Assembly (NCBI GenBank): GCA_041596615.1
Contig: JBFHIG010000002.1
Span: forward strand, 3,162 to 67,161
Reading direction: 5' to 3'
Length of the DNA: 64,000 nucleotides
Origin: Candidatus Moraniibacteriota bacterium
GTDB taxonomy: Bacteria; Patescibacteriota; Minisyncoccia; Moranbacterales; DUUL01
The notes under the pieces are model-generated. The model made no database searches and was not told where the DNA came from. It worked only from the letters and a program-made list of their open reading frames with translations. Made by a program: the position numbers and the translations under genes. Of the stretch, positions 6,412 to 64,000 are shown piece after piece. Position 1 is the stretch's first letter. Every line of letters begins with the position of its first letter.

Positions 6412-6912
6412 CTATTTGATTTCTTCCAACAGTCCTTTGCCAATCAAAGCTTCTCGGACCTTGGTCTCGACTAATTGGTCATGCACTCGATCTAAAATAT
6501 AGTTATTATCGATGTGTTTTGCTACTTTTATTGCAAAATAAGGATCCTTTTTGGAAGCTAGGTCAACAATTTTTGCGATTTGATCTTCTGGGTTTTGCAA
6601 CGAAGAAACATCTTTGGCATGAAATTTTACATGCTCCCTCCGCTTATCTGCGTCACTTCCTTTCGAATCACCATCGTCATCTTTTTGCACGGTCTTTACT
6701 GGCGATGGTGTTTTTGCTATTTGTTCTTTGGCTTGTTCCATCACTGCCTCACTCCTATGTACCATCTCCTGATTCCTCTTAATAAGCTCTTCCAATTCAT
6801 TCTCCCCATGACTCCCTTTATCTTCAGCTTTCTGGGCATTCTTTAGCTTTTCCGCAAATTCCTCTGAATCATTTTTAATTTCTTGTTCAATGTTCGTTTC
6901 CTGTTCTGGCAT
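6412..6912 (-). CDS. Hypothetical acidic protein
   Basis: 166-aa ORF, highly charged (E/K/D-rich) with no TM helix. It is co-directional with its flanking genes, with 42-55-nt gaps. Confidence 0.5.
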   Translation of the reverse strand: MPEQETNIEQEIKNDSEEFAEKLKNAQKAEDKGSHGENELEELIKRNQEMVHRSEAVMEQAKEQIAKTPSPVKTVQKDDDGDSKGSDADKRREHVKFHAKDVSSLQNPEDQIAKIVDLASKKDPYFAIKVAKHIDNNYILDRVHDQLVETKVREALIGKGLLEEIK

Positions 6913-6954
6913 TTTTTTACCTTACTTATTTATATTCTTCATTATTTTCAAGCT

Positions 6955-7338
6955 CTATTCTTCCTCGGTTACATCAACAATTTGATCAGTTTTAGATCCT
7001 GTTTTGGTTTCTTCTTTTCCGGCACTATCCATAAATTCTTTCATCTCCGTTTTGTATTTTCCTATCTCATCTAAAATAAGCTCCTCGATTCCAGGAAGAT
7101 TCTCTTGCAAAAATGCATCGACTGCTTCACCCTTCTCATCATCCGAGTTTATTACATCAGCAAATTCGACTTTTTTATCTTCGGGAAGCTCAGTAACAAT
7201 TCTCAGAACAATTCGCTGTTGAATTATTTCTCCCATTTGAATTAATGTTTCCTCTCTTTGTTCTTCTGGAAGCTCATTAATCCCAAGCTCCTTTATTAAG
7301 TCGATTTGCGCAGCTTTTATATTTTCTTTTAAAGACAT
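6955..7338 (-). CDS. Small acidic helical protein (resembles the CPR-restricted DUF5663-like family, from memory)
   Basis: 127-aa ORF. The pattern LGINELPEEQREETLIQMGEIIQQRIVLRIVTELPEDKKVEF matches what I recall of small CPR helical proteins. It starts 11 nt after the stop of the giant ORF. Confidence 0.5.
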   Translation of the reverse strand: MSLKENIKAAQIDLIKELGINELPEEQREETLIQMGEIIQQRIVLRIVTELPEDKKVEFADVINSDDEKGEAVDAFLQENLPGIEELILDEIGKYKTEMKEFMDSAGKEETKTGSKTDQIVDVTEEE

Positions 7339-7349
7339 ACTATTTAAAA

Positions 7350-14088: not shown

Positions 14089-14496
14089 ATGCAAACATCA
14101 GACAATTCGCAATTTAAAATTTGCATCATAGAAGATGAAAAAAGCATCCTCGAACTCTATCGCACTAAATTGGAAGGTGAACATTATCAGGTCTTTACTG
14201 CTAGTGATGGTCTGGAGGGGATGGAGTTATTAAAAAAAGTTTCACCCCACGTAGTTTTGGTAGATTTAATGATGCCTAATATGACTGGTTATGAATTGAT
14301 GGAAAAAATGAAAGCCGATCAAGAATTGAGAAATATTCCAATAATTATCCTCACAAACTTTGACGATACTGAATCAATCAATAAAACTAGTCATTTTGAT
14401 GCTGATTTTTATTTAGTAAAAGCACAATATTCACCTTCAGACGTAGCACATATTGTAAAAGAGGTTCTTGACTCACACCATGAGTATTCTTTTTAA
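14089..14496 (+). CDS. Stand-alone response-regulator receiver (CheY-like) protein
   Basis: 135-aa ORF with the acidic pair IIEDE, a phospho-acceptor context (HVVLVDLMMPNMTGYE), the IIILTNF T/S position and a YLVKAQ Lys position. It has no output domain. Confidence 0.85.
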   Translation: MQTSDNSQFKICIIEDEKSILELYRTKLEGEHYQVFTASDGLEGMELLKKVSPHVVLVDLMMPNMTGYELMEKMKADQELRNIPIIILTNFDDTESINKTSHFDADFYLVKAQYSPSDVAHIVKEVLDSHHEYSF

Positions 14497-23127: not shown

Positions 23128-24144
23128 TCAGCAACCATAACAAACGTCCCAGTGAGTGCTTTCTCTAGCATAAATATTACCACTACTATCAACATACATT
23201 GGCGCTCCATCTGAACGAACACCTGTATAGGTATAATTATCAATGATATATGTATTAACTGCTGCAGTATCTTCTATGTCAACCTTATACCCATTTGCGT
23301 GAGAAAATACTCCCGTAGCATGCGGCCCTCCTTCTGCAGCACCTGTAACTATAATGGGCACCCCCACTTCACTTTGAAAGCCAATCACGCCACTAGTACT
23401 TGCTGGTCTTAATCCTTCTACCAAAGTGGCTCCTGGACTAGACTCCCAAACCGAAATATCATATGCTGCTAAGTTATCTCTAGCCGATTGCTCTGCTGCA
23501 GTTATAACACCTGCACCTGCACCTGCACCTGCGCCTGCGCCTGCACCTGCTCCTGCTCCTGCTCCTGCGCCTGCTCCTGCACCTGTAGCGGCACTAGGAG
23601 GTGCTGTATCGAAAACACTGTCAGTAATACAATTAAATTCATACCAGTGCCCGCCAGACCTAATTCCAAGATTACTTTCATCTGCGGATAAAAAAACCAA
23701 GACAGTATACACTAGCAGCCATGCGAGTAGAAAACCAGCAAAACCCATCAATGTTTTTGTGATAATTCCTTTTGCAAAAGCAGCTGTACCAGGATTTCCC
23801 ACTGAAAGAAGATATACAACTCCTCCGATAGTAAGAGATAAAATTGCAAGAATAATTATCCAAGCAAACATTAAATCAAAGATATTCTTTACCATAATAA
23901 GCATGTGGCAAAGGGTGCAGCTACTTTCTTCATCGTAAGGGGTCCTACTGTCATCACAGCTTCTTCCACAAGGCACAATAGCTCTTTCAAATTCCAAAAT
24001 GCTTATGCCAGACACCCCTTCTGAAGACTGAGAACAATTAGCTGCTTGAGCTGGATAAGGAAGTCCTAAGAAATAGACCCCCATTAAAAGAGAAGTCACT
24101 CCCAAGAGAAAAAAATTTCTGACATTTTTAATTTTTGTTTTCAT
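23128..24144 (-). CDS. Secreted/membrane fusion protein: VirB2/TrbC-like pilin module + (Gly-Ala)12 linker + M15/LAS-type zinc peptidase-like C-terminal domain
   Basis: It has a signal peptide (MKTKIKNV...PYPAQA) and a Cys-rich motif (VPCGRSCDD...CTLCH). Two hydrophobic helices follow (FAWIIILAILSLTIGGVVYLL; FAGFLLAWLLVYTVLVFL), then (GA)12. The C-terminal ~125 aa carry IVTGAAEGG...FSHANGYKVDI (H-x6-D) and ARESTHWD (ExxH). Confidence 0.6.
   Translation of the reverse strand: MKTKIKNVRNFFLLGVTSLLMGVYFLGLPYPAQAANCSQSSEGVSGISILEFERAIVPCGRSCDDSRTPYDEESSCTLCHMLIMVKNIFDLMFAWIIILAILSLTIGGVVYLLSVGNPGTAAFAKGIITKTLMGFAGFLLAWLLVYTVLVFLSADESNLGIRSGGHWYEFNCITDSVFDTAPPSAATGAGAGAGAGAGAGAGAGAGAGAGAGVITAAEQSARDNLAAYDISVWESSPGATLVEGLRPASTSGVIGFQSEVGVPIIVTGAAEGGPHATGVFSHANGYKVDIEDTAAVNTYIIDNYTYTGVRSDGAPMYVDSSGNIYARESTHWDVCYGC
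23510..23587. repeat. Imperfect hexanucleotide microsatellite (CCTGCN)x12-13 encoding (Gly-Ala)12 on the minus strand
   Basis: Direct reading gives cct gca / cct gcg / cct gct units in 12 copies plus cct gta. This is a G+C-rich tract in an AT-rich genome. Confidence 0.95.
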
Positions 24145-36157: not shown

Positions 36158-36754
36158 ATGAGAATTCTCGTAATTGACGACACCCAGAAACATTTAGATT
36201 CAGCCCTCCAGACCCTTGGTGAGCATGAAGTTGTTACCTGTTCAACCTACGATGAAGCAGAGAATCTAGTCGACATTTACAGCAAGGAGAAGTGGGATGC
36301 AGTTTTATGTGACTTACTTATGCCTGCAGGCAGTCGTGCGCAAGGAGGGCCAGGTACGAAATTTGTAGGTCAAGAAATGCCTGTCGGCTGGGCGCTTGCA
36401 CTTATGGCAGTAAGAAGCAACGTCCGCTTTATAGCGGTCGTAACAGACATGAATCACCATCATCATCCTGCCAGTGCGATGTTAGATCACACCAACGACC
36501 ATATTTTCAAGGTTGATGAGTCTAGGGTTTTGATGACAAACAGCACTGGCCGTGTAGGGATTAAAGGAACTGAACGCTGTTGCGTATGGTGCTGTGATGA
36601 AGGAACAAAGAGGCGTGAAGATATGAGTTCCGATGTTTGTACTTATTGCTACGGAGAGAGTCCCCTCTACCGTGAATATGGAAAAGATTGGGGGAATATC
36701 TTAGAAAAACTCACCAGCAGTAGCAATAACAAAAAGGGAAACCCTATCCTGTAA
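36158..36754 (+). CDS. REC (CheY)-like domain protein with an atypical insertion, a His4 run and a C-terminal double CxxC zinc-ribbon-like tail
   Basis: AAGGAGA SD. MRILVIDD and WDAVLCDLLMPAG resemble the receiver acidic pocket and phospho-acceptor strand. The insert is SRAQGGPGTKFVGQE, and NHHHHP follows. The tail is CCVWCC...CTYC. Confidence 0.6.
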   Translation: MRILVIDDTQKHLDSALQTLGEHEVVTCSTYDEAENLVDIYSKEKWDAVLCDLLMPAGSRAQGGPGTKFVGQEMPVGWALALMAVRSNVRFIAVVTDMNHHHHPASAMLDHTNDHIFKVDESRVLMTNSTGRVGIKGTERCCVWCCDEGTKRREDMSSDVCTYCYGESPLYREYGKDWGNILEKLTSSSNNKKGNPIL

Positions 36755-41253: not shown

Positions 41254-41865
41254 TTATTCTTTTCCGCGCATTATTACACCCTCTTCTCTTTTTTGCTCTT
41301 TAATTGCATTTTTTTGTAAAGCCATAATAACGGTTCTAATCATCACTGGATCCTCAACTTGCTTGAAAACAAAACGTTCCCTTTCTCCAGCAGTTTGGAT
41401 ATAGACTTGTCCGAATTTAAGCAAAGTTGGTATTACACCATGAATTTCGGTTGTCACATCTTGAATCTTGCCATGCTCCAACTCGCTTATTTCTCGCCTA
41501 AATAAACCTATTTGCTCGATACTGATAATTCTTTGGTCGGTAACAATCCAAACATCATAATAGAAATCAATCCACATCACAAAAAGTCCTACCCAGAAAG
41601 CCATTAGTGAAAAACTCATAATCACATTGAAAACATGATTATCAATTATAAAAGGAAGCCTGTTTGCGACAATTGGAGCTAAAACAAAAACGATAATAAT
41701 GCCTATTAAAAAAATAACAAAAGGAATTAGCTTTACAATGAAAATTAACCAGTGTCTGCGTAAAATCAAGATGATTTCTTCATCATCTCTTTTCCCTTTG
41801 AATTTATAATCCAAGAATCTATGTTGATAATTTTTTTTATTATTATTCATAATAAGAGCCTTCAT
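41254..41865 (-). CDS. Membrane protein with a bacterial PH-like (YdbT/DUF304-like) C-terminal domain
   Basis: Two TM helices after EEIILILRRHW are followed by a beta-rich ~80-aa domain. The layout resembles bPH_2 proteins, as recalled from memory. Confidence 0.45.
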   Translation of the reverse strand: MKALIMNNNKKNYQHRFLDYKFKGKRDDEEIILILRRHWLIFIVKLIPFVIFLIGIIIVFVLAPIVANRLPFIIDNHVFNVIMSFSLMAFWVGLFVMWIDFYYDVWIVTDQRIISIEQIGLFRREISELEHGKIQDVTTEIHGVIPTLLKFGQVYIQTAGERERFVFKQVEDPVMIRTVIMALQKNAIKEQKREEGVIMRGKE

Positions 41866-42103
41866 AGTCTAAATTATTTGGAATTACAGTAAAGTTAAAT
41901 GAAAGCGAATCCCAATCGACTTGAATTGCATTTGAAATATTAAAAGTTATAACAAGCAAACAACCAACAATAAAAATCAATGTCGTTATTGTGGAAATTT
42001 TTTCGTTTAATTTATTTACTCTAAGATGATAAACCACCGCCAAAAAACCGCCAAAAAAGAAAATTAGAAAAAGAAAATACACAATTAACGGTAAATTTAT
42101 CAT
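41843..42103 (-). CDS. Small two-TM membrane protein
   Basis: 86-aa ORF with two hydrophobic helices. Its end overlaps the downstream ORF start by 23 nt. Confidence 0.4.
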   Translation of the reverse strand: MINLPLIVYFLFLIFFFGGFLAVVYHLRVNKLNEKISTITTLIFIVGCLLVITFNISNAIQVDWDSLSFNFTVIPNNLDYEGSYYE

Positions 42104-42130: not shown

Positions 42131-43129
42131 TTAGTTTCTGTTTTCAGGAATTTCAATTCCCAAATGCTTATAAGCGGCATCTGTAACGCGTCTTCCTCGT
42201 GGAGTTCTTTCGAGAAATCCTAACTGCATTAAAAATGGTTCATAAACCTCTTCAATTGTTTGAATGTCTTCAGAAAAAGCTGCTGCAATTGTTTGAACTC
42301 CTACAGGACCACCAGCAAACTTATTTATCATAACGCTCAAAACTTCCCTATCAGCTGTTTCTAAACCCAAGCTATCAACATCCAAAATCTCAAAAGTAGC
42401 TAACACCGTTTTATTTGTTATTACTGAATGATTATTCATTTGTGCATAATCTCTCACTCTTTTTAATAGTCTATTGACAATTCTTGGTGTTTTTCGGGAA
42501 CATTTTGCAATTGTTGCCCTCCCCTCCAAATCAGTTTTTATTCCTAAAATATTGCTATTTCTTTCGATTATTTGACACATTTCCTCTTCAGAATAGAACT
42601 CTAATTTGTTAATAATTCCAAATCGATTTCTAAGTGGGGCCGATAACATTCCTAATCTTGTTGTTGCCCCAATAAGCGTGAATTTTGGCAGCTCCAATTG
42701 AATCGTTCTTGCTGATGGACCTTTTCCAACGATAATATCCAACTTTCCATCCTCCATTGCCGGATATAAAACTTCCTCCACCACCTTGCTTAACCTGTGA
42801 ATTTCATCAACAAAAAGCACATCTCCGTCATTTAAGTTCGTCAAAATTGAACCTAGATCACCGACTCTCTCAATTGCAGGCCCCGATGTTGTTTTAATTC
42901 CAGCACCCATCTCCCTGGAAATAATATGGGCCAGAGTGGTCTTTCCTAATCCTGGAGGACCAAATAACAAAATATGATCAAGTGCCTCTTTTCTTTGTTT
43001 CGCTGCGCCCATCAAAATATGCAAATTCCTCTTCACAATCTTTTGCCCAACATAATCGCTTAGGGTCTGAGGTCGCAAAGTAATCTCCAATTGTTCATCT
43101 ATCTCCTCTTTTTTGTTTGTTTCAATCAT
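42131..43129 (-). CDS. ruvB: Holliday junction branch-migration ATPase RuvB
   Basis: [12 protein letters not shown], Walker [12 protein letters not shown], Walker [10 protein letters not shown], and a C-terminal winged helix. Confidence 0.95.
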
Positions 43130-43269: not shown

Positions 43270-43495
43270 ACGTGGATTTGAAATTATGTTAATGTTTTTT
43301 TACATTTTTAGTGTCAACCTGTAGACAAGGGTGCTCTGAACTCCCAAGGAATCCTTCTTAGTATAGGTTAGTGTGGTTTAGGCTGTGCTATCCTCGGATT
43401 TATTCCTGCCTTATACCTTGTGTGTAAGCTTTTATTGTCTACAGATTGATGTTAGAAATGCGCTTTGAAACTGCCTTTTTAGGGCAGTTTTTTGT
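43270..43495 (+). ncRNA. Candidate ~225-nt structured small RNA (unclassified)
   Basis: It is bracketed by the promoter above and a strong terminator. A 15-bp long-range helix with one mismatch (43314-43328 pairs with 43435-43449) encloses ~105 nt containing local hairpins. There is no credible ORF: the track ORF at 43446-43793 is an antisense shadow. Confidence 0.4.
43468..43495. terminator. Rho-independent terminator (best on +; may also serve the convergent ATPase gene)
   Basis: AAACTGCC-TTTTTAG-GGCAGTTT perfect 8-bp stem followed by TTTG. It lies 16 nt from the stop of the minus-strand ORF ending at 43511. Confidence 0.8.
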
Positions 43496-43510: not shown

Positions 43511-46500
43511 TTATTCTGCTTGGCTCTCAGAATCTTCATTCAATCTTCGCCCTACTTGTTTAACTTTTTCAACATACTCAATTTCCGTAATTACATGTGC
43601 TACTTCATCAAGCGTAGTCTCTCCTCTTAGAATATGCAATATCCCATCCTGTCCCATTGTCAACATTCCTTCTTCAATAGCCTTTTCTCGAATCTCAATT
43701 GTAATGGGGTTTGTTGTTAAAAATTTCTGCATTACTCTATCGATCTCCAGTACTTCTGTAATTGCAACTCTTCCTTTAAATCCAAGGTTGTGACACTTCT
43801 CACAACCAACTGGCTCAAAAACCTTGTCCACTTTTTTAGGGATATCAATTTTTACTTTAGGGGATATACTATTCAGAACCTCTTCTATAATTTCCTCCTC
43901 TTCAACCTTCACAGCTCTTTCTCTTTTACAATGAGGACAAAGCGTCCTAACAAGTCTTTGTGCCACAAAACAATTAGTTCCGGAAGAAAGGTCTGACATG
44001 GAGACGCCCATATTCAACAATCTTTGCACCGAACCAGCAGCACTATTAGTATGCAATGTTGTTAAAATCAAATGACCTGTTAAAGCGACTTTATAAGCGG
44101 CGTTAGCACTTTCAGAATCTCTTATTTCTCCCACCATTATGATATCGGGATCCTGTCTTAAAATAACCCTCATTGCGCTCGAAAAAGTATAGCCATCATC
44201 TTCTTTTACCTGTGTCTGCAAGACTCCTTCCATTTGATATTCAATTGGATCCTCTATTGTTATAACCTTAAGTTTTGGATCTTTGAGATAATTCAAAAGA
44301 CTATACAAAGTGGTTGTTTTACCACTGCCAGTTGGTCCTGTATCCATGATAATCCCGTTTGGCTTTGCAACATTTCTAAGTATCTTCTCGAGGTTATAAG
44401 GATTCATGTTTAGTTCAGCTAGTTCTGTAACCTGAACACTTTGACTTAAAAGTCTCATAACGATAACATCTCCAAAACCACCCAATATTACCGAGACTCT
44501 AACATCTATTGATTCCTCCCCCGACTCCCTTTCCTTGTTTGAATAAACAATTTTAAACCTTCCATCTATAACTCCCTCTCTCTTTCCCGTTTTCACTCCC
44601 ATCAAATTTTTAATCTCATTTAAAACAGTAAGATAATCATTCATTGAAAGAAGTGCAACGTCATGCAAAACTCCGTCAATTCGATATCTGATTTTAAATT
44701 TTTTCAATCCAGGCTCTATATGAATATCACCAGTGCCTGTATATACAGCTCCAATTAAAACATATCGCACCAATTCCTTTGGAGGAAGAACAGAAAATAA
44801 TTCTTCGAATTCTTCATAGTCATTTTTCACTTTGGCCATTTTTTCTAAAACGTCGTCTTTGATAAAAATTCCACGCGCCAAAGATTGAACAACTATTTTC
44901 TCATACAAATCAATCAAATATTCTCCCTTTCCAACCACACGTTGCAATTCTTCGATTGAAGTTGTTCCAGTAACTGATTTTAAAATTCCGTCCTGTTCCA
45001 GAGTAATCATTCCATTCTCTAATGCTGCGCTCCTAATTTCATCCTCCGGAGCCATTTTTTCAATAGCAGTTTTGATTTCTTCTGTAATAACAAGAATTTC
45101 AAAAATTCCAACCCTCCCTTTATAACCAAGCCCGTGACATTTGGCGCAACCTCTTGGCTTCCAAAGCCTATCAATACGTTTGGGGATTGAAATGTCTGCC
45201 TTAGGAGAAATAAGTGCGAGCATTTTTTTTATCATATCGATAGTTTCACTTGCTGGTACATATTCTTCTTTACAGTGTGGGCATAGACGCCTCAAAAGAC
45301 GCTGAGCAACAAAAGCATTTACTGCAGGCGCGATTAAGTTAGGCTTAACTCCAAGGTCAACAAATCTTCCGATTACACCACTAGCACTGTTTGCATGTGT
45401 CGTTGAAAGCACTAGATGCCCTGTTAAAGAAGCGTGTATAGCAATTTCAGCAGTAGATTCATCTCTAATTTCTCCAACTAAAATAATGTCTGGATCTTGA
45501 CGCATAATTGCTCTTAATCCATTTTCAAAAGTATACCCTTTCGAATCCTCAACTTGTGTTTGACTCACACCAGGAACTTGATACTCAATCGGATTTTCAA
45601 TACTGATAATTTTTTTATCAACAGAATTCAAGCGATTGATTAAAGAATAAAGAGTTGTGGTCTTTCCACTCCCTGTTGGTCCGGAATTGATAATCGCTCC
45701 TTGCTTCTTCTCTGATTCTTTAATAAGCCATTCATAATTTAGCCCCTCCAATCCCATTTTACTTAGAGATAGATCCTCAATATTCTGACTGAGCAAACGA
45801 ACCACAATGTTTTCACCAAAATTCCCTGGCAAAATTGAAACTCGGAGATCCATCGCTGACTGACCTTCTCTTTCAACAGAAAAACGACCATCTTGGGCAA
45901 TATCACGCACATTTATCATCATTTTTCCAAGTACCTTTACTCTTGAGACGATAGTCGGATATATATGGATTGGAAAAGATGCTACCGTTTGAAGAACGCC
46001 ATCGATACGAAACCTCAAACGAACTTTACCTGTTTGTTGAGGTTCAAAATGAATATCTGAAGATTGCAACTTAATTGCTCCAGCAAGAATCATATTTAGC
46101 ACTTTAGTCACCGGGAGATCTCTGATTCTTTTATCCATATCCAAAACACCCTTCGTTTCATCCTCAAAATTAGCCAGTTCTTCGCCTGTTAAGCCAGCTC
46201 TCAATGTGTCAAGAATCACACTTAGATTTTCTTTTCCATACTCCATCCAAGCTCTTTCGATTGAAGACTGGGACACCACGAAAAGCTCAACCCTCATCCC
46301 GTCATCCTCTAAATCAGCAATAAAATCTCTAACTTTTCCATCTTCAGGATTTGTTGCTACTAGCTTAATTGATCTTTCTAGTTTATGGATAACCGCAATT
46401 CCTAAACTTTTCGCCTTTTCCTTCTCAATAAATTTAACATTCTCTTGGTCAATTGGGAAAATATTCAAATCCAAATAAGCCAAGTGTAAATCCTTTGCAA

Positions 46501-46813
46501 GCTTAGAAGCCTCCTCTTCTTCAGAATCTCTTCTTAGATGTGTTAATGTTTTTTGAATTCCACCCCTTCTGGCGAAAGTAACTGCTTCTTTATCTCTCTT
46601 GTTTTGTTCAATTCTCCTAAGCCTCTCTTTTTCATTTTCCAAATCTCGCTCCTCCTTTCTTCTTTCACGATCCTCTAGATAGCGCTCTTCTCTTTCCTCC
46701 GAAGTCTCTTCATCTTCATACACAACCCTTTCTACGTCTTTTTCAGCATCCTGAGAAGCGACTTGTGCATCTCCATCCACGCTGTCTTTTTTTTGTTTTT
46801 CTTCTTCGGTCAT
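43511..46813 (-). CDS. Tandem (duplicated) GspE/PilB-family secretion ATPase: acidic N-terminus + T2SSE_N-like domain + two complete ATPase modules
   Basis: Two Walker A sites (SGPTGSGKTTTLYSL at aa ~377; TGPTGSGKTTTLYSL at aa ~825). Two Asp/His-box regions (RQDPDIILVGEIRD...LTGHLVLSTTHAN; RQDPDIIMVGEIRD...LTGHLILTTLHTN). Two tetracysteine motifs (CPHCK...CAKCHGLGYKGR; CPHCK...CEKCHNLGFKGR). Confidence 0.85.
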   Translation of the reverse strand: MTEEEKQKKDSVDGDAQVASQDAEKDVERVVYEDEETSEEREERYLEDRERRKEERDLENEKERLRRIEQNKRDKEAVTFARRGGIQKTLTHLRRDSEEEEASKLAKDLHLAYLDLNIFPIDQENVKFIEKEKAKSLGIAVIHKLERSIKLVATNPEDGKVRDFIADLEDDGMRVELFVVSQSSIERAWMEYGKENLSVILDTLRAGLTGEELANFEDETKGVLDMDKRIRDLPVTKVLNMILAGAIKLQSSDIHFEPQQTGKVRLRFRIDGVLQTVASFPIHIYPTIVSRVKVLGKMMINVRDIAQDGRFSVEREGQSAMDLRVSILPGNFGENIVVRLLSQNIEDLSLSKMGLEGLNYEWLIKESEKKQGAIINSGPTGSGKTTTLYSLINRLNSVDKKIISIENPIEYQVPGVSQTQVEDSKGYTFENGLRAIMRQDPDIILVGEIRDESTAEIAIHASLTGHLVLSTTHANSASGVIGRFVDLGVKPNLIAPAVNAFVAQRLLRRLCPHCKEEYVPASETIDMIKKMLALISPKADISIPKRIDRLWKPRGCAKCHGLGYKGRVGIFEILVITEEIKTAIEKMAPEDEIRSAALENGMITLEQDGILKSVTGTTSIEELQRVVGKGEYLIDLYEKIVVQSLARGIFIKDDVLEKMAKVKNDYEEFEELFSVLPPKELVRYVLIGAVYTGTGDIHIEPGLKKFKIRYRIDGVLHDVALLSMNDYLTVLNEIKNLMGVKTGKREGVIDGRFKIVYSNKERESGEESIDVRVSVILGGFGDVIVMRLLSQSVQVTELAELNMNPYNLEKILRNVAKPNGIIMDTGPTGSGKTTTLYSLLNYLKDPKLKVITIEDPIEYQMEGVLQTQVKEDDGYTFSSAMRVILRQDPDIIMVGEIRDSESANAAYKVALTGHLILTTLHTNSAAGSVQRLLNMGVSMSDLSSGTNCFVAQRLVRTLCPHCKRERAVKVEEEEIIEEVLNSISPKVKIDIPKKVDKVFEPVGCEKCHNLGFKGRVAITEVLEIDRVMQKFLTTNPITIEIREKAIEEGMLTMGQDGILHILRGETTLDEVAHVITEIEYVEKVKQVGRRLNEDSESQAE

Positions 46814-46925: not shown

Positions 46926-47810
46926 TTATTTTTCGAAAACTACATCTCTCAATTTCTTCCATTCTTCTATTGATAAATTCTGTGCTCTGATGTTCTTATC
47001 CCAACCAAATTTATTAAAAATATTAAGCATTTCATTTTTATCTTTTTCCAACCCAGAAACTAAGTTATTTAGTAATTTTTTTCGTGGACTAGAAAAACCA
47101 CTCTTTACTATCTTAAAAAATTCCTTCTCTAAATGTTTTGTTTCTCTTTTTTCTTTCGGAAAAGTTTTTACACAAATAATTGCTGAATCAACCTTTGGTA
47201 CTGGATAAAAAGCTGTCTTTGGAACGACACCAACTAATTTAACATCACCATAGTATTGAGCTGAAACAGCAAGAATATTCATTGAACCAACCTCAGAAGA
47301 AACTCTTTCTGCGACTTCTTTCTGAATTAAAAGCACTATTGATTTTGGCTGAGTTTCTGTTTCTAGAAGTAAACGAAAGATTTTGCCTGTTATATAATAT
47401 GGAATATTTGCAACTACTTTATAATCACAAAAATCTCTTTCTTTTAAAAATTCTGGCAAGTTAACTTTTAAAATATCCTCTTCTATAATTTCAATTTTTT
47501 TATTATCCTTACTATTGTTCACTCTATATTTTCCACTCAGATATTCCACCATTCTTCGGTCTTTTTCGATGCAAATTACCTTTTTAGGAACCTTAATTAA
47601 TTGATCTGTCAGAATTCCCGTACCCGGACCAATCTCCAAGACGTTATCATCCTTTTTTAGATTAGCTGCTTCTATAATTATACCAAGAAATTTTTCGTCA
47701 TTTAAAAAATTTTGTCCTAGCGATTTCTTAGCACTAGGCGAATTTTTAAAATTATTACCTTGCCCTTTTTCATTCCTAAACTGTCTTCTTTTTTCTTTTC
47801 TAGTTATCAT
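46926..47810 (-). CDS. rsmA: 16S rRNA (adenine1518/1519-N6)-dimethyltransferase
   Basis: KSLGQNFL start motif, SAM-binding VLEIGPGTGILT, and NIPYYIT. Confidence 0.93.
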   Translation of the reverse strand: MITRKEKRRQFRNEKGQGNNFKNSPSAKKSLGQNFLNDEKFLGIIIEAANLKKDDNVLEIGPGTGILTDQLIKVPKKVICIEKDRRMVEYLSGKYRVNNSKDNKKIEIIEEDILKVNLPEFLKERDFCDYKVVANIPYYITGKIFRLLLETETQPKSIVLLIQKEVAERVSSEVGSMNILAVSAQYYGDVKLVGVVPKTAFYPVPKVDSAIICVKTFPKEKRETKHLEKEFFKIVKSGFSSPRKKLLNNLVSGLEKDKNEMLNIFNKFGWDKNIRAQNLSIEEWKKLRDVVFEK

Positions 47811-48911: not shown

Positions 48912-48940
48912 TTGACAAATTGATTAAAATATGCTATATT
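48912..48940 (+). promoter_or_regulatory. Near-consensus sigma70 promoter with extended -10
   Basis: TTGACA (48912-48917), a 17-nt spacer ending in TGC, then TATATT (48935-48940). Confidence 0.55.
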
Positions 48941-49017
48941 GGAAAACATATCAGTACCTATCATTTTTGTTGTGTAAATCAAAATTCAACCTTGTCCGAG
49001 GACAAAGGGGGTGTGTT

Positions 49018-49689
49018 ATGGGAAAATCAGCGATTGACTGTTTGAGAGCAAACTTCATCAGGGGTGGAAGTAAAAAAAACGCCCTAGTCCTTATTAGGGC
49101 CTTGGAAGAAGAGCTCCAACAAACAAATGAAAAATTGGAAGGGGCCGAAGCTTATATAATTCAACTAGAGGAAGATAATCGTTTTCTCCGAAGGCAAGTT
49201 ATCATTGACAGCTTAACTGGGATTCATAATAGAAGATTTTTTAATGAAGAGTTCCCTAAAGAAGTTTTGAGGGCTAAGCGTCGAAAAGAAGCGGTGTCAA
49301 TTATAATGATCGACATTGATAATTTTAAAAGATTCAATGACACCTATGGACATCCCAAGGGAGACGAAGTTTTGCAACTAGTTGCACTGGCCCTGGAAAA
49401 TGTCTTACAGCGTCCGACTGACTCTCTTTCAAGATATGGCGGAGAAGAGCTCGTCTTTATTCTTCCGAATACTGATCTGGCTGGTGCTCAGTACATTGCT
49501 GAGAAAGCTCGCCAATCAGTGGAATCTCTTAATATTCCACATTCTGCTAACGATGCTAATGTTGTAACTATCAGTTTGGGTGCTGCAACTATACACCTCA
49601 ACGAGTCAGCCCATCATCTGCTCGCAAGAGCTGATAAATGTTTATACAAAGCAAAAACATGCGGAAGAAATCGCGTTTATTGCGATTAA
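49018..49689 (+). CDS. Diguanylate cyclase (GGDEF domain) with a short N-terminal coiled-coil
   Basis: I place the start at ATG 49018 because the SD AAGGGGG lies 6-7 nt upstream. The active-site region is RYGGEELVFILP. An RxxD I-site (RPTD) sits 5 residues upstream. DIDNFKRFNDTYGHPKGDEVL is also present. Confidence 0.85.
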   Translation: MGKSAIDCLRANFIRGGSKKNALVLIRALEEELQQTNEKLEGAEAYIIQLEEDNRFLRRQVIIDSLTGIHNRRFFNEEFPKEVLRAKRRKEAVSIIMIDIDNFKRFNDTYGHPKGDEVLQLVALALENVLQRPTDSLSRYGGEELVFILPNTDLAGAQYIAEKARQSVESLNIPHSANDANVVTISLGAATIHLNESAHHLLARADKCLYKAKTCGRNRVYCD

Positions 49690-57508: not shown

Positions 57509-58326
57509 TTTTTGTTTGGTGTTTTATTTTCTTGCGTAAGGACTTCTGCTACACGACCATCAAGCATTTTAAAAACTTTACTTGCGTAGTGATATTGATC
57601 TGGGTTGTGAGTAACCATTAAAATGGTTATTTCAAATTTTTTATTCAATTGCGCGATAAGATCCATAAGTTCAATACCTGATTTTTGATCAAGATTGCCG
57701 GTTGGCTCATCTGCGATAATAAACCATGGATTTAAAAGAAGTGATCTTGCCAAGGCGACTCGCTGTTGTTGTCCTCCCGAAAGGTCAAATGGCCTGTGCT
57801 TAGACCACTCACTCATTCCGACAAGCTCTAGCATTTGAGCCGCTTTTTCAAGTCCTTCATGAAATTTTAAACCTCCTATAATTGAAGGGACGGCTACATT
57901 TTCCAAGACACTTAATGATTTAAGCCAAAACGCCTGTTGCGGAATAAATCCCACGCTCTTATTTCTAAAATCAGCTCTCCAATTTTTAGTATGCTTCCAA
58001 ATATCAGTTCCTTTGATATAAACACTTCCTTGTGATGGAGCTTCTAGTCCGTATACAATGTGTAGTAATGTTGACTTACCGCATCCAGAAGGTCCAACCA
58101 ACATTGCAAAATCACCTTGTTTTATTTTCAACCCGACTCCATTAAGAACAGAAACTTCATTATCCCCAATAATAAACTCTTTTTTCACATCACTAACAAC
58201 AACCACACCCTCTTTTTCAGTGTATAGTTCAGCTGTTGTTTCACCATTATTACGGTGACTCAAGCTCTTTAGTATATCTGCTTCATTTACTAAATTTCCT
58301 TCTTTTTGTTTTGCTATTGTTGCCAT
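57505..58326 (-). CDS. ABC transporter ATP-binding protein (MacB/LolD-like)
   Basis: Walker A GPSGCGKST, Q-loop, signature LSGGQQQRVALAR, and Walker B FIIADEPTGNLD. It has a ~45-aa N-terminal extension. Its start overlaps the giant ORF stop by 13 nt. Confidence 0.92.
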   Translation of the reverse strand: MATIAKQKEGNLVNEADILKSLSHRNNGETTAELYTEKEGVVVVSDVKKEFIIGDNEVSVLNGVGLKIKQGDFAMLVGPSGCGKSTLLHIVYGLEAPSQGSVYIKGTDIWKHTKNWRADFRNKSVGFIPQQAFWLKSLSVLENVAVPSIIGGLKFHEGLEKAAQMLELVGMSEWSKHRPFDLSGGQQQRVALARSLLLNPWFIIADEPTGNLDQKSGIELMDLIAQLNKKFEITILMVTHNPDQYHYASKVFKMLDGRVAEVLTQENKTPNKK

Positions 58327-61300
58327 AGTTTAGATATCCAACTAAATTTATCAGAGAAAGTTCCTACAACAATTTCTGTTGCGTTCTCCTTCGAATCTTC
58401 AACAATTACTGTCACAGCTTTTGTAGGAGTTTCATTTCCTGACTCATCAAATGTTTTAACAATATAACTGTAAACTTGCCCTGGATCAACAGGAATTGTA
58501 ATTAAATGATAAGTGTTCAAAGGATCCTCTGCTGAACTTTGCTCGAAATTATTTAAAACTATTCCAGGGCTGTAGAAAACTTTTGCAGTTGTAAGTTCGT
58601 CAGTTTCAATCTTGATATACAAATTAGCACGAGCATCCTTACCCCTTCCAATTACTCTTCCAACAGCACGATTCGAAAGAATTCCTGGTGGTCTGCTGTC
58701 CGATTTTGTTATTATTTTAGTATCCAGGGTGGTTGCTGACACTCCATCTGCCGCAATACCACCAACATTAATTTCATACTCAACTGATGGCGTAAGCCCC
58801 TCTAGCTCAATTAGGTGCTCTGTGACATATTCATTGCCCAAAAAATTATGATATGTATCTTCACTGGTAGTTTTAAACCTGACAAGTGTTGTCGTTGGTA
58901 ATGTCGTGTTGTATTTTACTATAACAGTAGGAATATCAACGTTTTCTTTATTTTCAACAGCGATGTCGGAAGAAACTGGCTGTTCTAATGTTCTAAAGGA
59001 ATATCTATCTGAGCTAAATTCGTTTAAATCATTATCTATGGCATCGATTTGAAAACTATAATCAGTCGTGCTTTCAAGGCCTGTTAATTTTATCATATGA
59101 CTACTTCCTGAGGAAGTCTCCTCAATTAACTCAGACAGACTTCCGCCCTTACCATAATGCAAGCTACATTTTGCGCTAGCGTTAGTTGTCCAAAAAATAG
59201 TAGCTGTTTCAAGGCCTATTTCAGAAGCCTCAACTTCTGAAATCGTTGGCGGTGGCAATGTTTCAAAACTCAAAATCTCACTCATCCCAATGTTTCCGTC
59301 TGGGTCTATGTATTTTGCTCTATAATAATACTTGGAGCCAGCATCTAGGCCCGTAAGCTCAACAATATGATCTGTTAAAGAATCAACCTGTCCGTTTGTT
59401 TTCCCAAGACTCATGGCCTTTCCATATTCTACAAAAGAACTGGCTAAACGATTAGTTCCCCATTTTATCACAGCCTCATAGGCCTGAACAGTATGGGTTG
59501 GCTCAGTCACCAAGGTTGGTGGGGTCGTATACCTTCCCGTTGGAATTATACTCACCGTGGTCGAGGGGATGGAGATATTGTTTGTACTATCTTTAGACTT
59601 CGCATAATAATAATATAAACGACTCTCGAGTTCTGTATCAACATAAGCACTTCCCGATGTTGAGGCAACCTCTTTAAATGTCTTGTTGTCATCACTTCTA
59701 TAGATAACATAACCTGAAAAATTATCTTTATTCATTGCAGTAGGCGGAGACCATTTAAGCGCTACTGAATATTCTTGATTTTCACGGTCAGAGGTGTCAA
59801 AAATCTGCATATTAACTGGCGCTCCGGGCGCAGATGTGTCTGCAGAAAAATCAATATATGCGTATAGTTCATAATCAACATTTTCAGCCTCATCGACTGC
59901 ACAAACGTAAAAACGATTTGAACCTTTTTGTGTCGCAAATGGTCCAGGGCCAGCTGCTCTTACGGTTGTTGTTATTGTGTTATAAGCATTTGGTAGCGCG
60001 TTAACTGAATAAACATATTTAATCTTTCCAGCATCACCCATGTATGATTCTGGTTGATCCCATTGAAACGCAAAAGAGTTAGTGGTCGATGTTTCTGGTG
60101 TTACGGCTAAGTTTCTTGGTGGAGATGGAGCGCTGGAACTAAAGTAATACTCTTGCTTAATCGGCTCGGAAAAATTCCCTGCCAAATCGACAGCACGTAA
60201 ATGAAACCAGTTTTTCCCAGATTGATATGCAGCAACTGTGTGATTGACATTCGGCAGTGTAAGAGAGGTGGACATTGGATCATTGATGTCAATCCAATTT
60301 GTTGGGGCGTCTCCTCCTGTTTGATACTGGAATTTTGCTAGACCAGAGTGAATATCTGTTGCATCAGAATCCCAAGTAAAGCTATAGGTATCGCTAGCGG
60401 TGTATCCAGCTGGATTAACCAAAATGTCTGTTGGATTTGTTGGGGGGGTATTATCAAAAAGATAAGTAAAGGCTGCATAGGTTGAAGCCGGAACCATTTG
60501 CGCATCATCAATAGCCTTAATTCTTAAATAATACTCTTCCCCCGAGACTAAATTTTCAGCCGTAAAAGCGTTTTCACTTTGCAAAACACCTTCTAAATAT
60601 GGATCAGCTAAATTGTCAGTTCCGAAATATACATAGTACCCTACAACACCGGAACCACCAGAACCATCACTTGCACCTCCTGGCTGTTCAGCTACCGGCC
60701 AAACAAAATATGGCACCCTACTACTATTCCAAGCATTATTTGCCAGTGTTGTTGATAAAGAGTCGTTGTCATATCCAATAACAGTCGTTGGATTTGTTGG
60801 AGCAGCCGAATCTTGATAATAATTAATCTGAATATCCTCTAATAAAGGAGATTTTATCCTATCTGCTGATGTAAATTCAACTCTAATCTGGATATATCTA
60901 TTTTCGTTAGAAAGAATATCGAAACGATGTTCATTTGAATTAAAGACTTGCTCATTTATACCCTGTTCCCAGTTTGACCATTCGGTCTCATCGCTTGAGG
61001 TTCTGGTATAAATCATCGCACTTGTATTTTTTGGAAGTATATATTTAGCACTTAGGTTGGCCCATTTATAAACATCAACAAGGTCTATTGATTCTGAGGT
61101 GTAATTCCCTGCTTTTTTAAAGCCAGTATCATTTTCGGCTGATCCAACTACATAGCTATATAAACCATTTCTATATGATTCTGACTCTCCTCTTGCCGTT
61201 AACCAAATTCTATCATTTGAAAAAACTGCATCTCCCTCTCGATAAACTCTTGATGGGACGTCCGCCAGGTTCTCCCAAGCATCATTAGCGATATGGTATC

Positions 61301-64000
61301 TAAAATTCTCTCTTGTATCATTCCCCCTCATCGCATGTAAATATCCATCTTTGGTATCAACCAAAGAACCACCATGATATATGTTCGCTGGGGCATTTGC
61401 TCTAGTCTCCCAAGAACTTAAGTCTATATTATATCGCCACATATAAGCAGTATTTCCACCTCTAGTCCAATATATATATGGCACTCCTTCGATTTCCTTG
61501 TAAAGAATTTTTCCACCATAATTATTATTAAGCCCGGAGATTGTTGGCAACGCCGAAGACCATCTGCTACCAGCTGCAGCTTGGGTATCATATCGCCACC
61601 AATTCGAATTTGCTCCTCTTGTAAGATAAATATATCTGGAACCATCATAAGTCATTGATGAGCCGGAATTTGTCTGTAGTGGAATTGGGTCACTAGTTAT
61701 TAACTCCCACCTATTTGTTGCTACTTCATATCTCATAAAGTAATTACTGTTGTTGTTTGTAGGCCTAGTTCTAGTTCCGGTTCCAGCTGAAAGATAGATT
61801 GCGTTTTCGTCCTCATTATATGTCATCGCTGCACCACTATAAAGCCCAACAGGTGTTGAAGCAAGTTTTATAAATTCACCAGATTCAGTGTTATATTTTC
61901 CAAAATCATCACTGTAGTATCCTCTTGTAATGTACAAATTTCCCCTTCCATCCTCTACAAGCTCTGAACCATAATAATAGTCAAAATAGGAGTTAGTACT
62001 GTCAATGACTGATGGTCCAAAAAAACCTCTTTGGGGAATTTCCCAGGAGTTTTCCTCAATATTAAATCTATAAAACAGGCTTGAACCATTAGCTCTTAAA
62101 ACATATGCGTAACCATCTACAATCTTCATTGTGGCTCCATATGAAATAGTATTAGGGATTTTTGGAAGTTGTATCCAAGAGTCAGTTATTATATCATATT
62201 TCATAAAATTATCTCTTCCATTTCCGCTCAACATAAAGACTGAATTCGATTCATTGTCATAGGCAACACATCCTCCATAATAAACTCCGATTGGCGATTT
62301 TGCTAAAGGCACCCAGGAATTACCTTTTTCTCCAGTATCAGGATCATCCTCAATAACATACTTTGAAAAATATGGATAATAATTTCCTTGTGATGCATAT
62401 ATGTAATTATTTCCATCAGAAACAGCGTCTCCTCCAATGTATACTCTCTGCCCATCTGATTCGTTTGGATTTCCAAATTCCGCATTAGACAAAGTTGTCC
62501 AACGATTTTCTTGAGTGTCATAGCGATAAAAAACATCATCATTCCCTGGAAACGCGTAAATATACTTTCCTCCCGTCCAAGAGAGGGAGCTTCCGTATGT
62601 AAAGTTTTTTGGGGCGCTTGCAACAGATTCCCAAAGATTATTCTCGATGTCGTATCTCCAAAAAGTTGGGGTGTTAATTCCTCGAGAAGCAAACAAATAA
62701 CCTTCGGGCCCTTCCGTTAACGTACCCCCATAGTAAACAGTCTCTGGGGTGTCACTAAGCGAAGACCAAGTATCAGTTGTTATATCGTAAAGATAGAAGT
62801 TTCTTTGATTATACCCTCTCAGTGCAAATAGTTTATCTCCGGCATAGGCCAATTCGCCTCCTCTCTGGATTGTTCCCGGAGCATTTGACAACAGTGTTTG
62901 TTGCCAAAATCCATCCACTGCTTCAAGTTGCAACTTATCAGGCTCAGCTGAGGTCGAAATATTTTCTACTTCCCCCTCTTCGAAGTCTGTTTGACTTGTT
63001 TTGATGCTACTTTGAAACGGAGATACCCCATCATAGCTATAAACGAAAGCTTCCCAGGCTTCATCGGTTATATTTCCGTCATTGTCTTTGGTTTTCAAAA
63101 GCAAATAATAATCACCTGTTGTCATTGCGGTGTTCACAGAGAAACTTGTTGCTGTTTGAAAAATTCCATCCGTTTCTGGATCAGCAGAACTGTCTGTTCC
63201 AAAATAAACGTAGTATCCTTCAATCTGAGAACCGGCATCGACTGCCTCTGTCCAAGAAAAATAAGGGTGTGTATGTTTATATGGTGTATTGGTGGTCATA
63301 GTCTCCCCCCCAATTCTACTTGAGGTTGCGGAAATTATAGAAGGATTAATAGGATCCACATTCTCGCTACTATAAGAAATTGTGATATCATCAATAGTCG
63401 GCGTACTAACACCATCGGAAGTGGCAAGCAAAACTTTAACCTGCAGATATCTTTTTTTGGGAGACTGAATTTCCGTGCCAGAAAGAGCTTCCCATATTGA
63501 CCAACTGTTTCCGTCATCTGAACTTCTGGTCTGATATATAACAGAGGTATTCGCTGGCAAGTCCTGGTTTGAGGTTAAGGATGTCCATGAGTCAACATAC
63601 CCTAGGTCCAAAACCTCACTTATAAAAAATCCATTTGCAATAAAATTTGTTGCTCCAGCAGTATAACTCCAAAAATCAGCAATATCCGTTCCTGGAGAAG
63701 CATAAAAAGAATTATTTCCCGTATAGGCAATTGATGCTCCAGCCCAAGTGCCTCTTCCATATGAATATTTCTGATTAAATGGCAACTCCCTCCAAGAGTC
63801 AGTTGACACCGTATATTCCCAGGTACTGTTTTTATAATTTCCAGCCAATGCCAAAATTCTTCCATTTTCATCATATGTAAGGTCGGTGCCATAATACTGA
63901 GCAAATGGAGTTTGTTGTATTTTGCTCCAAGAATTGCTACCCGTGTCATATTTCAAGAACGCAGTCTCTCCATCACCGAATGTTGCGTAAAGACTAGCAC
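58314..64000 (-). CDS. Giant surface protein (more than 1880 aa; N-terminus outside the window): Kelch-like beta-propeller blades + jelly-roll modules + multiple FN3-like domains
   Basis: More than 12 repeats of the blade motif (FYLYDITTDTW, FWRYDIENNLW, FYRYDTQENRW, FMKYDIITDSW...). Two homologous ~95-aa modules (aa ~105-195 and ~946-1046). At least 8 FN3-like units with P-rich linkers. The frame stays open upstream of the track's TTG at 63956 to the window edge (…SLYATFGDGETAFLKYD). Confidence 0.85.
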   Translation of the reverse strand, partial: ASLYATFGDGETAFLKYDTGSNSWSKIQQTPFAQYYGTDLTYDENGRILALAGNYKNSTWEYTVSTDSWRELPFNQKYSYGRGTWAGASIAYTGNNSFYASPGTDIADFWSYTAGATNFIANGFFISEVLDLGYVDSWTSLTSNQDLPANTSVIYQTRSSDDGNSWSIWEALSGTEIQSPKKRYLQVKVLLATSDGVSTPTIDDITISYSSENVDPINPSIISATSSRIGGETMTTNTPYKHTHPYFSWTEAVDAGSQIEGYYVYFGTDSSADPETDGIFQTATSFSVNTAMTTGDYYLLLKTKDNDGNITDEAWEAFVYSYDGVSPFQSSIKTSQTDFEEGEVENISTSAEPDKLQLEAVDGFWQQTLLSNAPGTIQRGGELAYAGDKLFALRGYNQRNFYLYDITTDTWSSLSDTPETVYYGGTLTEGPEGYLFASRGINTPTFWRYDIENNLWESVASAPKNFTYGSSLSWTGGKYIYAFPGNDDVFYRYDTQENRWTTLSNAEFGNPNESDGQRVYIGGDAVSDGNNYIYASQGNYYPYFSKYVIEDDPDTGEKGNSWVPLAKSPIGVYYGGCVAYDNESNSVFMLSGNGRDNFMKYDIITDSWIQLPKIPNTISYGATMKIVDGYAYVLRANGSSLFYRFNIEENSWEIPQRGFFGPSVIDSTNSYFDYYYGSELVEDGRGNLYITRGYYSDDFGKYNTESGEFIKLASTPVGLYSGAAMTYNEDENAIYLSAGTGTRTRPTNNNSNYFMRYEVATNRWELITSDPIPLQTNSGSSMTYDGSRYIYLTRGANSNWWRYDTQAAAGSRWSSALPTISGLNNNYGGKILYKEIEGVPYIYWTRGGNTAYMWRYNIDLSSWETRANAPANIYHGGSLVDTKDGYLHAMRGNDTRENFRYHIANDAWENLADVPSRVYREGDAVFSNDRIWLTARGESESYRNGLYSYVVGSAENDTGFKKAGNYTSESIDLVDVYKWANLSAKYILPKNTSAMIYTRTSSDETEWSNWEQGINEQVFNSNEHRFDILSNENRYIQIRVEFTSADRIKSPLLEDIQINYYQDSAAPTNPTTVIGYDNDSLSTTLANNAWNSSRVPYFVWPVAEQPGGASDGSGGSGVVGYYVYFGTDNLADPYLEGVLQSENAFTAENLVSGEEYYLRIKAIDDAQMVPASTYAAFTYLFDNTPPTNPTDILVNPAGYTASDTYSFTWDSDATDIHSGLAKFQYQTGGDAPTNWIDINDPMSTSLTLPNVNHTVAAYQSGKNWFHLRAVDLAGNFSEPIKQEYYFSSSAPSPPRNLAVTPETSTTNSFAFQWDQPESYMGDAGKIKYVYSVNALPNAYNTITTTVRAAGPGPFATQKGSNRFYVCAVDEAENVDYELYAYIDFSADTSAPGAPVNMQIFDTSDRENQEYSVALKWSPPTAMNKDNFSGYVIYRSDDNKTFKEVASTSGSAYVDTELESRLYYYYAKSKDSTNNISIPSTTVSIIPTGRYTTPPTLVTEPTHTVQAYEAVIKWGTNRLASSFVEYGKAMSLGKTNGQVDSLTDHIVELTGLDAGSKYYYRAKYIDPDGNIGMSEILSFETLPPPTISEVEASEIGLETATIFWTTNASAKCSLHYGKGGSLSELIEETSSGSSHMIKLTGLESTTDYSFQIDAIDNDLNEFSSDRYSFRTLEQPVSSDIAVENKENVDIPTVIVKYNTTLPTTTLVRFKTTSEDTYHNFLGNEYVTEHLIELEGLTPSVEYEINVGGIAADGVSATTLDTKIITKSDSRPPGILSNRAVGRVIGRGKDARANLYIKIETDELTTAKVFYSPGIVLNNFEQSSAEDPLNTYHLITIPVDPGQVYSYIVKTFDESGNETPTKAVTVIVEDSKENATEIVVGTFSDKFSWISKLWQQ

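Follow-up and report, generated by a model that had tools for sequence, protein, structure and literature searches.

Motor ATPases of the GspE and PilB type normally carry one motor module per chain and assemble as homohexamers. One gene in a 64,000-nucleotide stretch of Candidatus Moraniibacteriota DNA (assembly GCA_041596615.1, contig JBFHIG010000002.1, positions 3,162 to 67,161; hereafter the window) departs from this plan. It encodes two modules of this type in a single chain of 1100 amino acids (Table 1), next to ruvB and without pilus genes nearby. What kind of ATPase is this, and how would a chain with two motors build a ring of six? We find that the fusion is genuine and that both modules look intact. 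Tree placement and genomic context argue that the gene is no displaced pilB and that its product is a tandem version of an orphan ATPase specific to Patescibacteria. In the reading that we favour with modest confidence, three chains form one six-module ring, (A-B)3, where A and B are the first and second modules.

Is the fusion real? The initial annotation, which described two full ATPase units in one chain, had itself named the circumstance that would undo this description: an assembly error or frameshift at the junction, joining two adjacent genes. Adjacent pilB paralogues do exist in other bacteria, and three loci outside the Candidate Phyla Radiation (CPR), L058, L071 and L084, gave matches of ~4.1 kb. 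At none of these, however, does an open reading frame (ORF) carry two modules. The window gene is a single frame with no stop codon near the module junction. In an alignment of 116 full-length tandem homologues, 51-100% identical to the window protein, the linker region (aa 626-675) has zero gaps, and conservation drops there from 0.66 to 0.34. The architecture recurs in four independent assembly sources (NCBI, JGI, ENA and Logan), including contigs longer than 1 Mb such as those that carry P0033 and P0445. The A and B modules form separate orthologous groups as well, the nearest neighbour of a module being of its own type in 232 of 232 cases. Because the linker is gapless in 116 homologues and the architecture recurs in independent assemblies, the fusion is not an artefact; a join of two pilB genes is almost certainly the wrong explanation.

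The architecture is conserved, yet rare, to judge from database searches. Among the matches listed in a search of 5.8 billion protein clusters, 117 of 120 are 974-1111 aa long, and the listed tandem matches cover 86-100% of the query at 51-100% identity; one NCBI entry, P0001, is identical to the window ATPase. A second search gave ~110 further clusters, many named Candidatus Moranbacteria. Clusters that share the tandem architecture number more than 200 at 90% identity and ~14 at 50% identity. When HMMER was run over 1.84 billion 50%-identity representatives, ~14 tandem proteins appeared among 14,702 T2SSE proteins (E<1e-30). A scan of GTDB genomes used patterns (Walker A, RQDPD box) that matched generic PilBs; at least one tandem locus (L006) was among the matches listed, and the scan also yielded the single-module CPR loci that were decisive for the comparison of genomic context below. 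Tandem proteins have long been in public databases, labelled PilB or GspE/PulE.

Does each half constitute a complete motor? Pfam T2SSE (PF00437) matches two stretches of the protein (707.1 bits, cut-off 24.9), and the NCBIfam PilB and GspE profiles each align twice along it. The pairwise alignment of the halves proposed in the initial annotation bears this out: BLASTP matches aa 233-633 to aa 676-1081, with 45% identity across 407 residues (E 9e-123). The halves are in register motif by motif, with the Walker A sequence GPTGSGKTT at aa 378 and 826 (448 apart), GEIRD at the end of Walker B at 447 and 895, TGH of the His box at 464 and 912, CPHC at 511 and 959, and CxKC at 556 and 1004. Both modules have the superfamily markers of T2SSE (Walker A, Asp box, atypical Walker B, His box) together with the tetracysteine motif in the C-terminal domain (CTD) that characterizes the PilB/GspE extension subgroup and is missing in PilT.

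These residues are under strict conservation. Across the 116 sequences the Walker A lysine, both Asp-box glutamates, the Walker B glutamate, both His-box histidines and the arginines of the N2 domain (N2D; R/R/R/R) are invariant or nearly so in A and in B, and the four zinc cysteines of each module, eight in total, are kept in 116/116. Tandem representatives at 38-49% identity keep this whole set too. The exception is P0136, an unrelated tandem whose first module is dead (Walker A GPTGSGTTT, degenerate Asp box). Because A and B alike keep their catalytic and zinc-binding residues invariant, the pairing is not one of an active module with a dead one: both are apparently competent for ATP binding and hydrolysis, nucleotide sensing and zinc binding. 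The completeness of both units, claimed at the outset, thus survives a check of each half for its full set of catalytic residues.

The two modules have nonetheless diverged. Within the close family identity is 65% between A modules and 60% between B modules, as against 45% between A and B, module B being the faster evolving. Thirty-two positions are conserved only in A and 12 only in B; four others are conserved in both but differ. Half of the A-only positions (16/32) lie in the N2D, several of them at aa 285-309. Because the A-only and B-only positions differ in this way, the two N2D faces would not be equivalent.

Only module A is preceded by an N1 domain; module B has none of its own. The Pfam match (PF05157) is weak, at 21.2 bits slightly under the cut-off of 23.1. 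We count an N-terminal GSPII/MshEN-type domain as present on the grounds that it is Pfam-annotated in most relatives and that the PilB profile aligns from aa 82. AlphaFold2 (AF2) predicts an alpha/beta domain here, with a predicted local distance difference test (pLDDT) of 81-90. The cyclic di-GMP-binding motif RLGxx(L/V/I)(L/V/I)xxG(L/V/I)(L/V/I) has no match in the N-terminal domain of the window ATPase. Control by cyclic di-GMP through the nearby GGDEF gene was considered and rejected, the MshEN motif being absent and that neighbour being conserved only in the closest relative, L004. The tail in front of the N1 domain is variable: aa 1-75 are 57-89% gaps across 116 relatives and are carried only by close relatives of ~1090-1110 aa. 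The last 25 residues are lineage-specific as well.

Which known ATPase does the protein represent? Each module has a PilB-like fold, with template modelling (TM) scores of 0.86-0.90 and 39-42% identity to the cores of G. metallireducens PilB and T. thermophilus PilF/PilB; module A reaches 0.90 against the PilF/PilB core structures. With PilB, the extension ATPase of type IVa pili (5TSH/5TSG; T. thermophilus PilF/PilB 5OIU, 5IT5), the protein shares the N2D and CTD fold, the Walker, Asp and His boxes, the N2D arginines, the zinc site and a GSPII/MshEN-like N-terminal domain. It differs from PilB in having two modules per chain, in lying outside the pil operon and the canonical clade, and in lacking the cyclic di-GMP motif. 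The fold and motifs are likewise common to the type II secretion ATPase GspE/EpsE/PulE (1P9R, 4KSR, 4PHT); unlike GspE, the window ATPase has no type II secretion genes nearby. The N1 domain of GspE is of the kind that binds GspL, and Patescibacteria are described as lacking an outer membrane. No gspF, gspL, gspM or secretin gene was found among the Pfam-scanned ORFs of the window. PilT and PilU, at ~350 aa, lack the zinc site that the window modules carry.

Profile scores do not place single modules in any of the named families. Against the PilB equivalog TIGR02538 (cut-off 675.65 bits), half A with the N-terminus scores 453.2 and half B 370.8; the whole protein passes, at 812 bits, only because the scores of its two modules add up. 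Against GspE (TIGR02533, cut-off 630.25) the modules reach 451.7 (A) and 378.0 (B) bits and the full-length protein 817. They also fall below the cut-offs for PilT/PilU (TIGR01420; 167.9 and 155.9 against 319.1) and ComGA (NF041000; 236.9 and 211.2 against 300). A search of the PDB returned single-module chains and no two-module chain.

Genomic context is more telling. Being encoded with pilC, pilM-O, pilT or pilins is one mark of a PilB, and the ATPase lacks it in the window and at 11 tandem loci. When 46 further ORFs across the 64 kb were scanned with Pfam, none matched T2SSF/PilC, PilM/N/O, PilT, prepilin peptidase or N-methyl pilin, and a regular-expression search of all six frames of the window found no prepilin motif. 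The position between rsmA and ruvB and the lack of pilus genes, both noted in the initial annotation, therefore hold, and the lack extends to 11 of 11 related tandem loci within 6-10 kb on either side. The two flanking genes are not alike. In eight of the 11 distinct loci with a tandem or triple gene, ruvB follows directly downstream in the same orientation, the linkage being broken in L005, L088 and L089. The upstream gene varies (rsmA, yidD, a gene for a DHH protein, others). Adjacency to rsmA is incidental; adjacency to ruvB is conserved.

The same slot is occupied by shorter proteins elsewhere. At 13 single-module Patescibacteria loci ruvB lies immediately downstream of the ATPase gene and pilus genes are absent; the surroundings read polA / tsaE / DHH ... 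ruvB / yebC / ruvC. Three other Patescibacteria loci, L026, L051 and L073, are pil operons (pilM-N-O, pilT, pilC, pilins, pilD), and in L073 the PilM, PilT, PilC, N-methyl pilin and PilD genes are confirmed by Pfam. In the comparison of tandem with single forms suggested in the initial annotation, singles share the ruvB slot, and the pilC and pilin genes found lie in the pil operons of these other loci. The single-module ruvB-linked GspE/PulE proteins (for example L009, L020, L029; P0273-P0392) have the clade, the slot, the N1, N2D and CTD plan and the orphan status in common with the window protein, and differ from it in having one module instead of two. Conservation among them is very strong, with 73-83% identity across more than 120 clusters. 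They are ~431-560 aa long, and the tandem form replaces them in Moranbacteria-like lineages. Five singles of this clade (L036, L039, L053, L060, L068) are only ~431-437 aa and consist of N2D and CTD without N1. The closest named relatives of the L029 ATPase, at 73-83% identity, are in Parcubacteria and Zambryskibacteria; L015, L023, L029, L030 and L036 are labelled Saccharibacteria in GTDB, a label that may not reflect their true lineage.

The tree agrees with the context. In a neighbour-joining tree of 126 modules, labelled by genomic context and bootstrapped 60 times, canonical PilBs split from the group of ruvB-linked singles, A modules and B modules in 59/60 bootstraps. The canonical side comprises 55 non-CPR loci and 7 CPR loci without ruvB linkage, three of the latter being confirmed pil operons. 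Both halves of the window protein, whose phylogenetic placement the initial annotation had left to be done, fall in the Patescibacteria-specific clade. It is this placement, together with genomic context, that speaks against a displaced pilB, and by the same tree the fusion descends from the single-module orphan ATPase. The modules of P0131 are mutual sisters in 60/60 bootstraps, and those of P0133 likewise; because the modules pair within these proteins, tandem duplication occurred at least three times within the clade. P0136, whose two modules are likewise closest to each other, has a further, separate tandem origin. An earlier module tree recovered strict A and B bipartitions in 0/50 bootstraps, owing to the intrusion of truncated "single" sequences and of tandems that had duplicated independently. 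The full-text literature that we searched contains no description of a tandem PilB/GspE or of the ruvB-linked orphan clade.

How would a chain with two motors assemble? The PilB hexamer consists of six packing units, each formed by the N2D of one chain and the CTD of the adjacent chain; N2D arginines sense the nucleotide, and the working state is C2-symmetric (PMC5424180). In a model of PulE6:PulF3, each PulF of the trimer contacts two neighbouring N2Ds through its non-identical Cyto1 and Cyto2 domains (PMC10790770). In the tandem protein the motor module has been duplicated behind a single N1, giving the order N1-N2D_A-CTD_A-linker-N2D_B-CTD_B. Because CTD_A is tethered to N2D_B, three of the six inter-chain joints of a ring would become intra-chain joints. 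Three chains could then close a single ring in which six modules alternate; it would bear three N1 domains, not six, and two alternating, non-equivalent N2D faces. Such a 3 x 2 layout would match the (Cyto1-Cyto2)3 platform of PulF/PilC chain to chain. PulF/PilC itself, a trimer with two repeats per chain, reaches a 3 x 2 pseudo-hexamer by internal duplication, as do the BMC-T pseudo-hexamers. Both are analogies only, the folds being different and neither being a PilT/GspE-type ATPase. The motor would act on a PilC-type platform whose gene lies elsewhere in the genome, in the service of a pilus, a competence filament or something else. That partner is the simplest assumption because all hallmarks of filament-extension ATPases are kept.

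The same duplication could instead give two stacked rings. The initial annotation had named this arrangement beside a trimer-of-dimers pseudo-hexamer, and both are plausible. In the stacked form six chains would form A6 over B6; only ring A, with its N1 domains and conserved N2Ds, would meet the platform, and ring B would contribute power or regulation. Since an N2D and a CTD are present in each module, homotypic rings are possible, and the excess of A-only over B-only conserved positions is what would be expected if only ring A touched a partner. The asymmetric N2D conservation is equally compatible with an (A-B)3 ring, however. Stacked rings, two hexameric tiers that arise from duplication, are formed by tandem RecA-like and AAA+ ATPases, KaiC, ClpB and p97 among them; these belong to different ATPase families and serve as analogies only. 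We know of no PilT/GspE-family protein that stacks, and the PDB search gave only single-module chains. Stacking would also require the 42-residue linker of each of the six chains to connect the C-terminal end of ring A with the N2D face of ring B. Both modules, moreover, keep the full catalytic apparatus under equally strict conservation. We regard the stacked arrangement as rather doubtful.

One relative bears on the choice. P0009 (1460 aa; L005, 10001-14383) has three modules, with Walker A at aa 314, 761 and 1211; some zinc cysteines are lost in modules 1 and 3, and the third module is sister to the second in 40/60 bootstraps. Since both 2 and 3 divide six, such a protein would favour a single six-module ring, and stacking would require three tiers. 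We give this argument little weight because P0009 is a singleton.

Several observations weigh against a single (A-B)3 ring driving a PilC-type platform. P0009 is the sole three-module protein in the database, on one contig. The AF2 model of aa 96-1080 has confident domains, with a predicted TM score (pTM) of 0.57, and their arrangement is not confident. In a fragment comprising CTD_A, the linker and N2D_B (pTM 0.67) the linker is disordered (helices are predicted, with pLDDT <50 at aa ~639-646), which is compatible with two independent domains; this lack of confident CTD_A/N2D_B packing is in keeping with stacked rings. Covariation by mutual information with average product correction, over 226 tandem proteins (effective number of sequences ~98), was dominated by phylogeny, the top pairs being a clique of clade-defining columns. 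The A-only positions were placed on the PulF-binding surface by secondary-structure order, not by superposition. The single modules fall short of the PilB and GspE cut-offs. No pilC, pilM or pilin gene lies within 6-10 kb on either side at 11 of 11 tandem or triple loci. Finally, DNA-repair genes persist as neighbours (ruvB, ruvA, ruvC, yebC, polA, fpg) and could point to another role.

Before turning to that role, we consider what separates the ATPase from ruvB. The 381-bp spacer between the two genes is conserved in nucleotide sequence even among loci with protein identities of only 50-58%. On both strands its fold is better than that of shuffled sequence (z -3.4 and -4.5), and the plus strand carries conserved -35/-10-like boxes and a hairpin with a T-run after it. 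A promoter and terminator scan of the gene region gave counts no higher than shuffles and was used only for these alignment-conserved boxes. We built a covariance model, R1, from six loci and searched 1.54 Mb with it. Full-length matches came from ten tandem or triple loci including the window (nine distinct, L003 being a duplicate of L002) and further matches from eight single-module ruvB-linked loci, six with E<1e-4 and two weak (E 0.06 and 0.18); non-CPR and pil-operon loci in the same 1.54 Mb gave none. Besides the window, the sRNA candidate is recorded at L001, L002, L004-L007, L009, L036, L053, L060, L068 and L086-L088.

The spacer appears to encode a structured small RNA (sRNA), antisense to both flanking genes. 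Over 11 sequences, pairing holds in 93% of cells, with compensatory changes in 26 of 35 pairs. In this alignment, which was fitted to the model, the covariation score is 0.62; slid controls give 0.10-0.16, and 0/500 shuffles score as high. Beyond the tandem lineages the closing stem covaries throughout. U-G wobbles mark the plus strand as the transcribed one. A search of Rfam with the spacer RNA returned only noise and no family, and the literature searched describes no sRNA in the Patescibacteria phylum; this covarying sRNA is a candidate new RNA class. By these comparisons the conserved unit is ATPase (forward), sRNA (reverse), ruvB (forward): the sRNA and ruvB are divergent, and the sRNA and the ATPase gene converge on a shared hairpin. 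Because the antisense sRNA and a terminator lie between them, the ATPase and ruvB are probably not co-transcribed. At L005 the sRNA follows the three-module gene, and ruvB is 5 kb upstream.

What, then, does the clade do? It might not be a pilus motor at all: single and tandem members alike could have a task tied to DNA uptake, recombination or repair. The ATPase adjoins ruvB across Patescibacteria, at the 13 single-module loci and most of the tandem ones, with pilus genes at none, and the genes found nearby include ruvA, ruvC, yebC, polA, fpg, recG, uvrD, dprA and topA. The clade stands apart from pil-operon PilBs, and its single-module family is very conserved. There is also a weak match to NCBIfam PINA (NF053733). 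PINA is an archaeal PilT-superfamily ATPase that acts on Holliday junctions, and its secretion-ATPase-superfamily core, working on recombination intermediates, is of interest given the ruvB, ruvA and ruvC genes here. The score is far under the cut-off, however (53.5 bits against 800), and PINA, which has PIN and KH domains, also differs in lacking a zinc site and an N1 domain. The window protein retains filament-extension features, namely the N1 domain, the tetracysteine site and the PilB-like fold. Synteny of housekeeping genes is generally conserved in small Patescibacteria genomes and does not imply shared function. The linkage is lost at three loci, and an sRNA with its own transcription and a terminator stand between the ATPase and ruvB. 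On balance such a non-pilus role seems unlikely.

A complete Saccharibacteria genome offers a further lead. Southlakia epibionticum has two pil-locus ATPases and in addition a third, orphan GspE/PulE gene, SEML1_0527, whose 540-aa product combines a GSPII-N-like domain with an ATPase core; the gene is flagged as core and Patescibacteria-enriched, with a transposon-sequencing call of GD/ES/ES (PMC10633639, Table S1/S2). It resembles the window gene in being an orphan outside pil loci with these two parts, and differs in having a single module and in not lying beside ruvB. Its neighbour trmH is also near the ATPase in L029 and L020. Membership of SEML1_0527 in the clade is only a lead; if it does belong there, the family would be an extra motor required for growth. 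A more general proposal, less probable again than a DNA-linked task, is that the ruvB-linked clade is a Patescibacteria-specific and probably essential motor that does not serve the known pili and drives another process, for example DNA handling coupled to recombination or some other envelope machine. The repeated duplication would then have produced a covalent A3B3 ring with division of labour, and the sRNA would be part of the unit.

Table 1. Features of the tandem ATPase locus and other genes of the window
Feature	Residues	Window position	Strand	Remarks
Tandem GspE/PilB-type ATPase gene	1-1100	43511..46813	-	Single unbroken ORF, ATG start, 1100 aa
N-terminal tail, E/K/R-rich	1-95	46529..46813	-	Lineage-specific, probably disordered
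Single N1 domain, MshEN/T2SSE_N-like	96-195	46229..46528	-	PF05157 at aa 110-192
Module A	232-632	44918..46120	-	N2D_A aa ~232-350, CTD_A ~351-632
Module A sites				Walker A K384; Asp box E406/E410; Walker B E448; His box H466/H473; Zn C511/C514/C556/C559
Inter-module linker	633-674	44792..44917	-	Fixed length, partly helical
Module B	675-1078	43580..44791	-	N2D_B ~675-800, CTD_B ~801-1078
Module B sites				Walker A K832; Asp box E854/E858; Walker B E896; His box H914/H921; Zn C959/C962/C1004/C1007
Conserved structured sRNA core		43307..43457	+	Antisense to both flanking genes; whole sRNA ~200 nt
Likely sRNA transcript		~43270-43494	+	Promoter-like TTGACA at 43235 and TAGGAT ending 43263; hairpin 43471-43487, then T-run
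ruvB		42131..43129	-	RuvB_N, AAA_lid_4, RuvB_C; conserved downstream neighbour of the ATPase clade
rsmA		46926-47810	-	Upstream neighbour of the tandem ATPase
GGDEF diguanylate cyclase		48931-49689	+	2 kb from the ATPase
Receiver-domain protein		14089-14496	+	
Receiver-domain protein		36158-36754	+	

Other features of the window deserve brief mention. Downstream of ruvB (41254-42103, minus strand) lie an ORF of 72-86 aa and a gene for a bPH_2 membrane protein, a pair also kept in L004, L005, L006, L086 and L088; in S. epibionticum a PH-domain protein, SEML1_0769, likewise follows ruvB. Farther away, a gene for a VirD4/TrwB-like coupling ATPase (827 aa) adjoins DUF5663 and a 1601-aa ORF without a Pfam match (3873-12155, minus strand), and a 338-aa protein has a T4SS_pilin-like region (23128-24144, minus strand). 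These are possibly parts of a Patescibacteria type IV secretion system. An 1880-aa protein with a Kelch beta-propeller and fibronectin-III repeats (58314-63956, minus strand), likely a surface or adhesion protein, is encoded beside a MacB/FtsX-type ABC transporter pair. The window has a GC content of ~35%; of its 32 two-kb bins, 30 show negative GC skew, and genes are mostly on the minus strand. At gathering thresholds the 64 kb contain no tRNA or other Rfam family.

The tandem ATPase matters first for the mechanism of this family. The coupling of ATP turnover to filament assembly in PilB and GspE hexamers is still debated on the basis of crystal and cryo-EM snapshots: C2 or C3 symmetry, rotary firing, six ATPases facing a trimeric platform. 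In a natural covalent A-B pair, one point mutation would hit every second site of the ring. The pair also fixes the order of subunits and would allow the 6:3 model of ATPase and platform to be tested, for which engineered concatemers would otherwise be needed. It matters, second, for the biology of Patescibacteria, which by these comparisons have, apart from their pil loci, a GspE-like paralogue under strong conservation. Because pilus ATPases are counted and named from annotation alone, members of this orphan clade are easily mistaken for "the" PilB.

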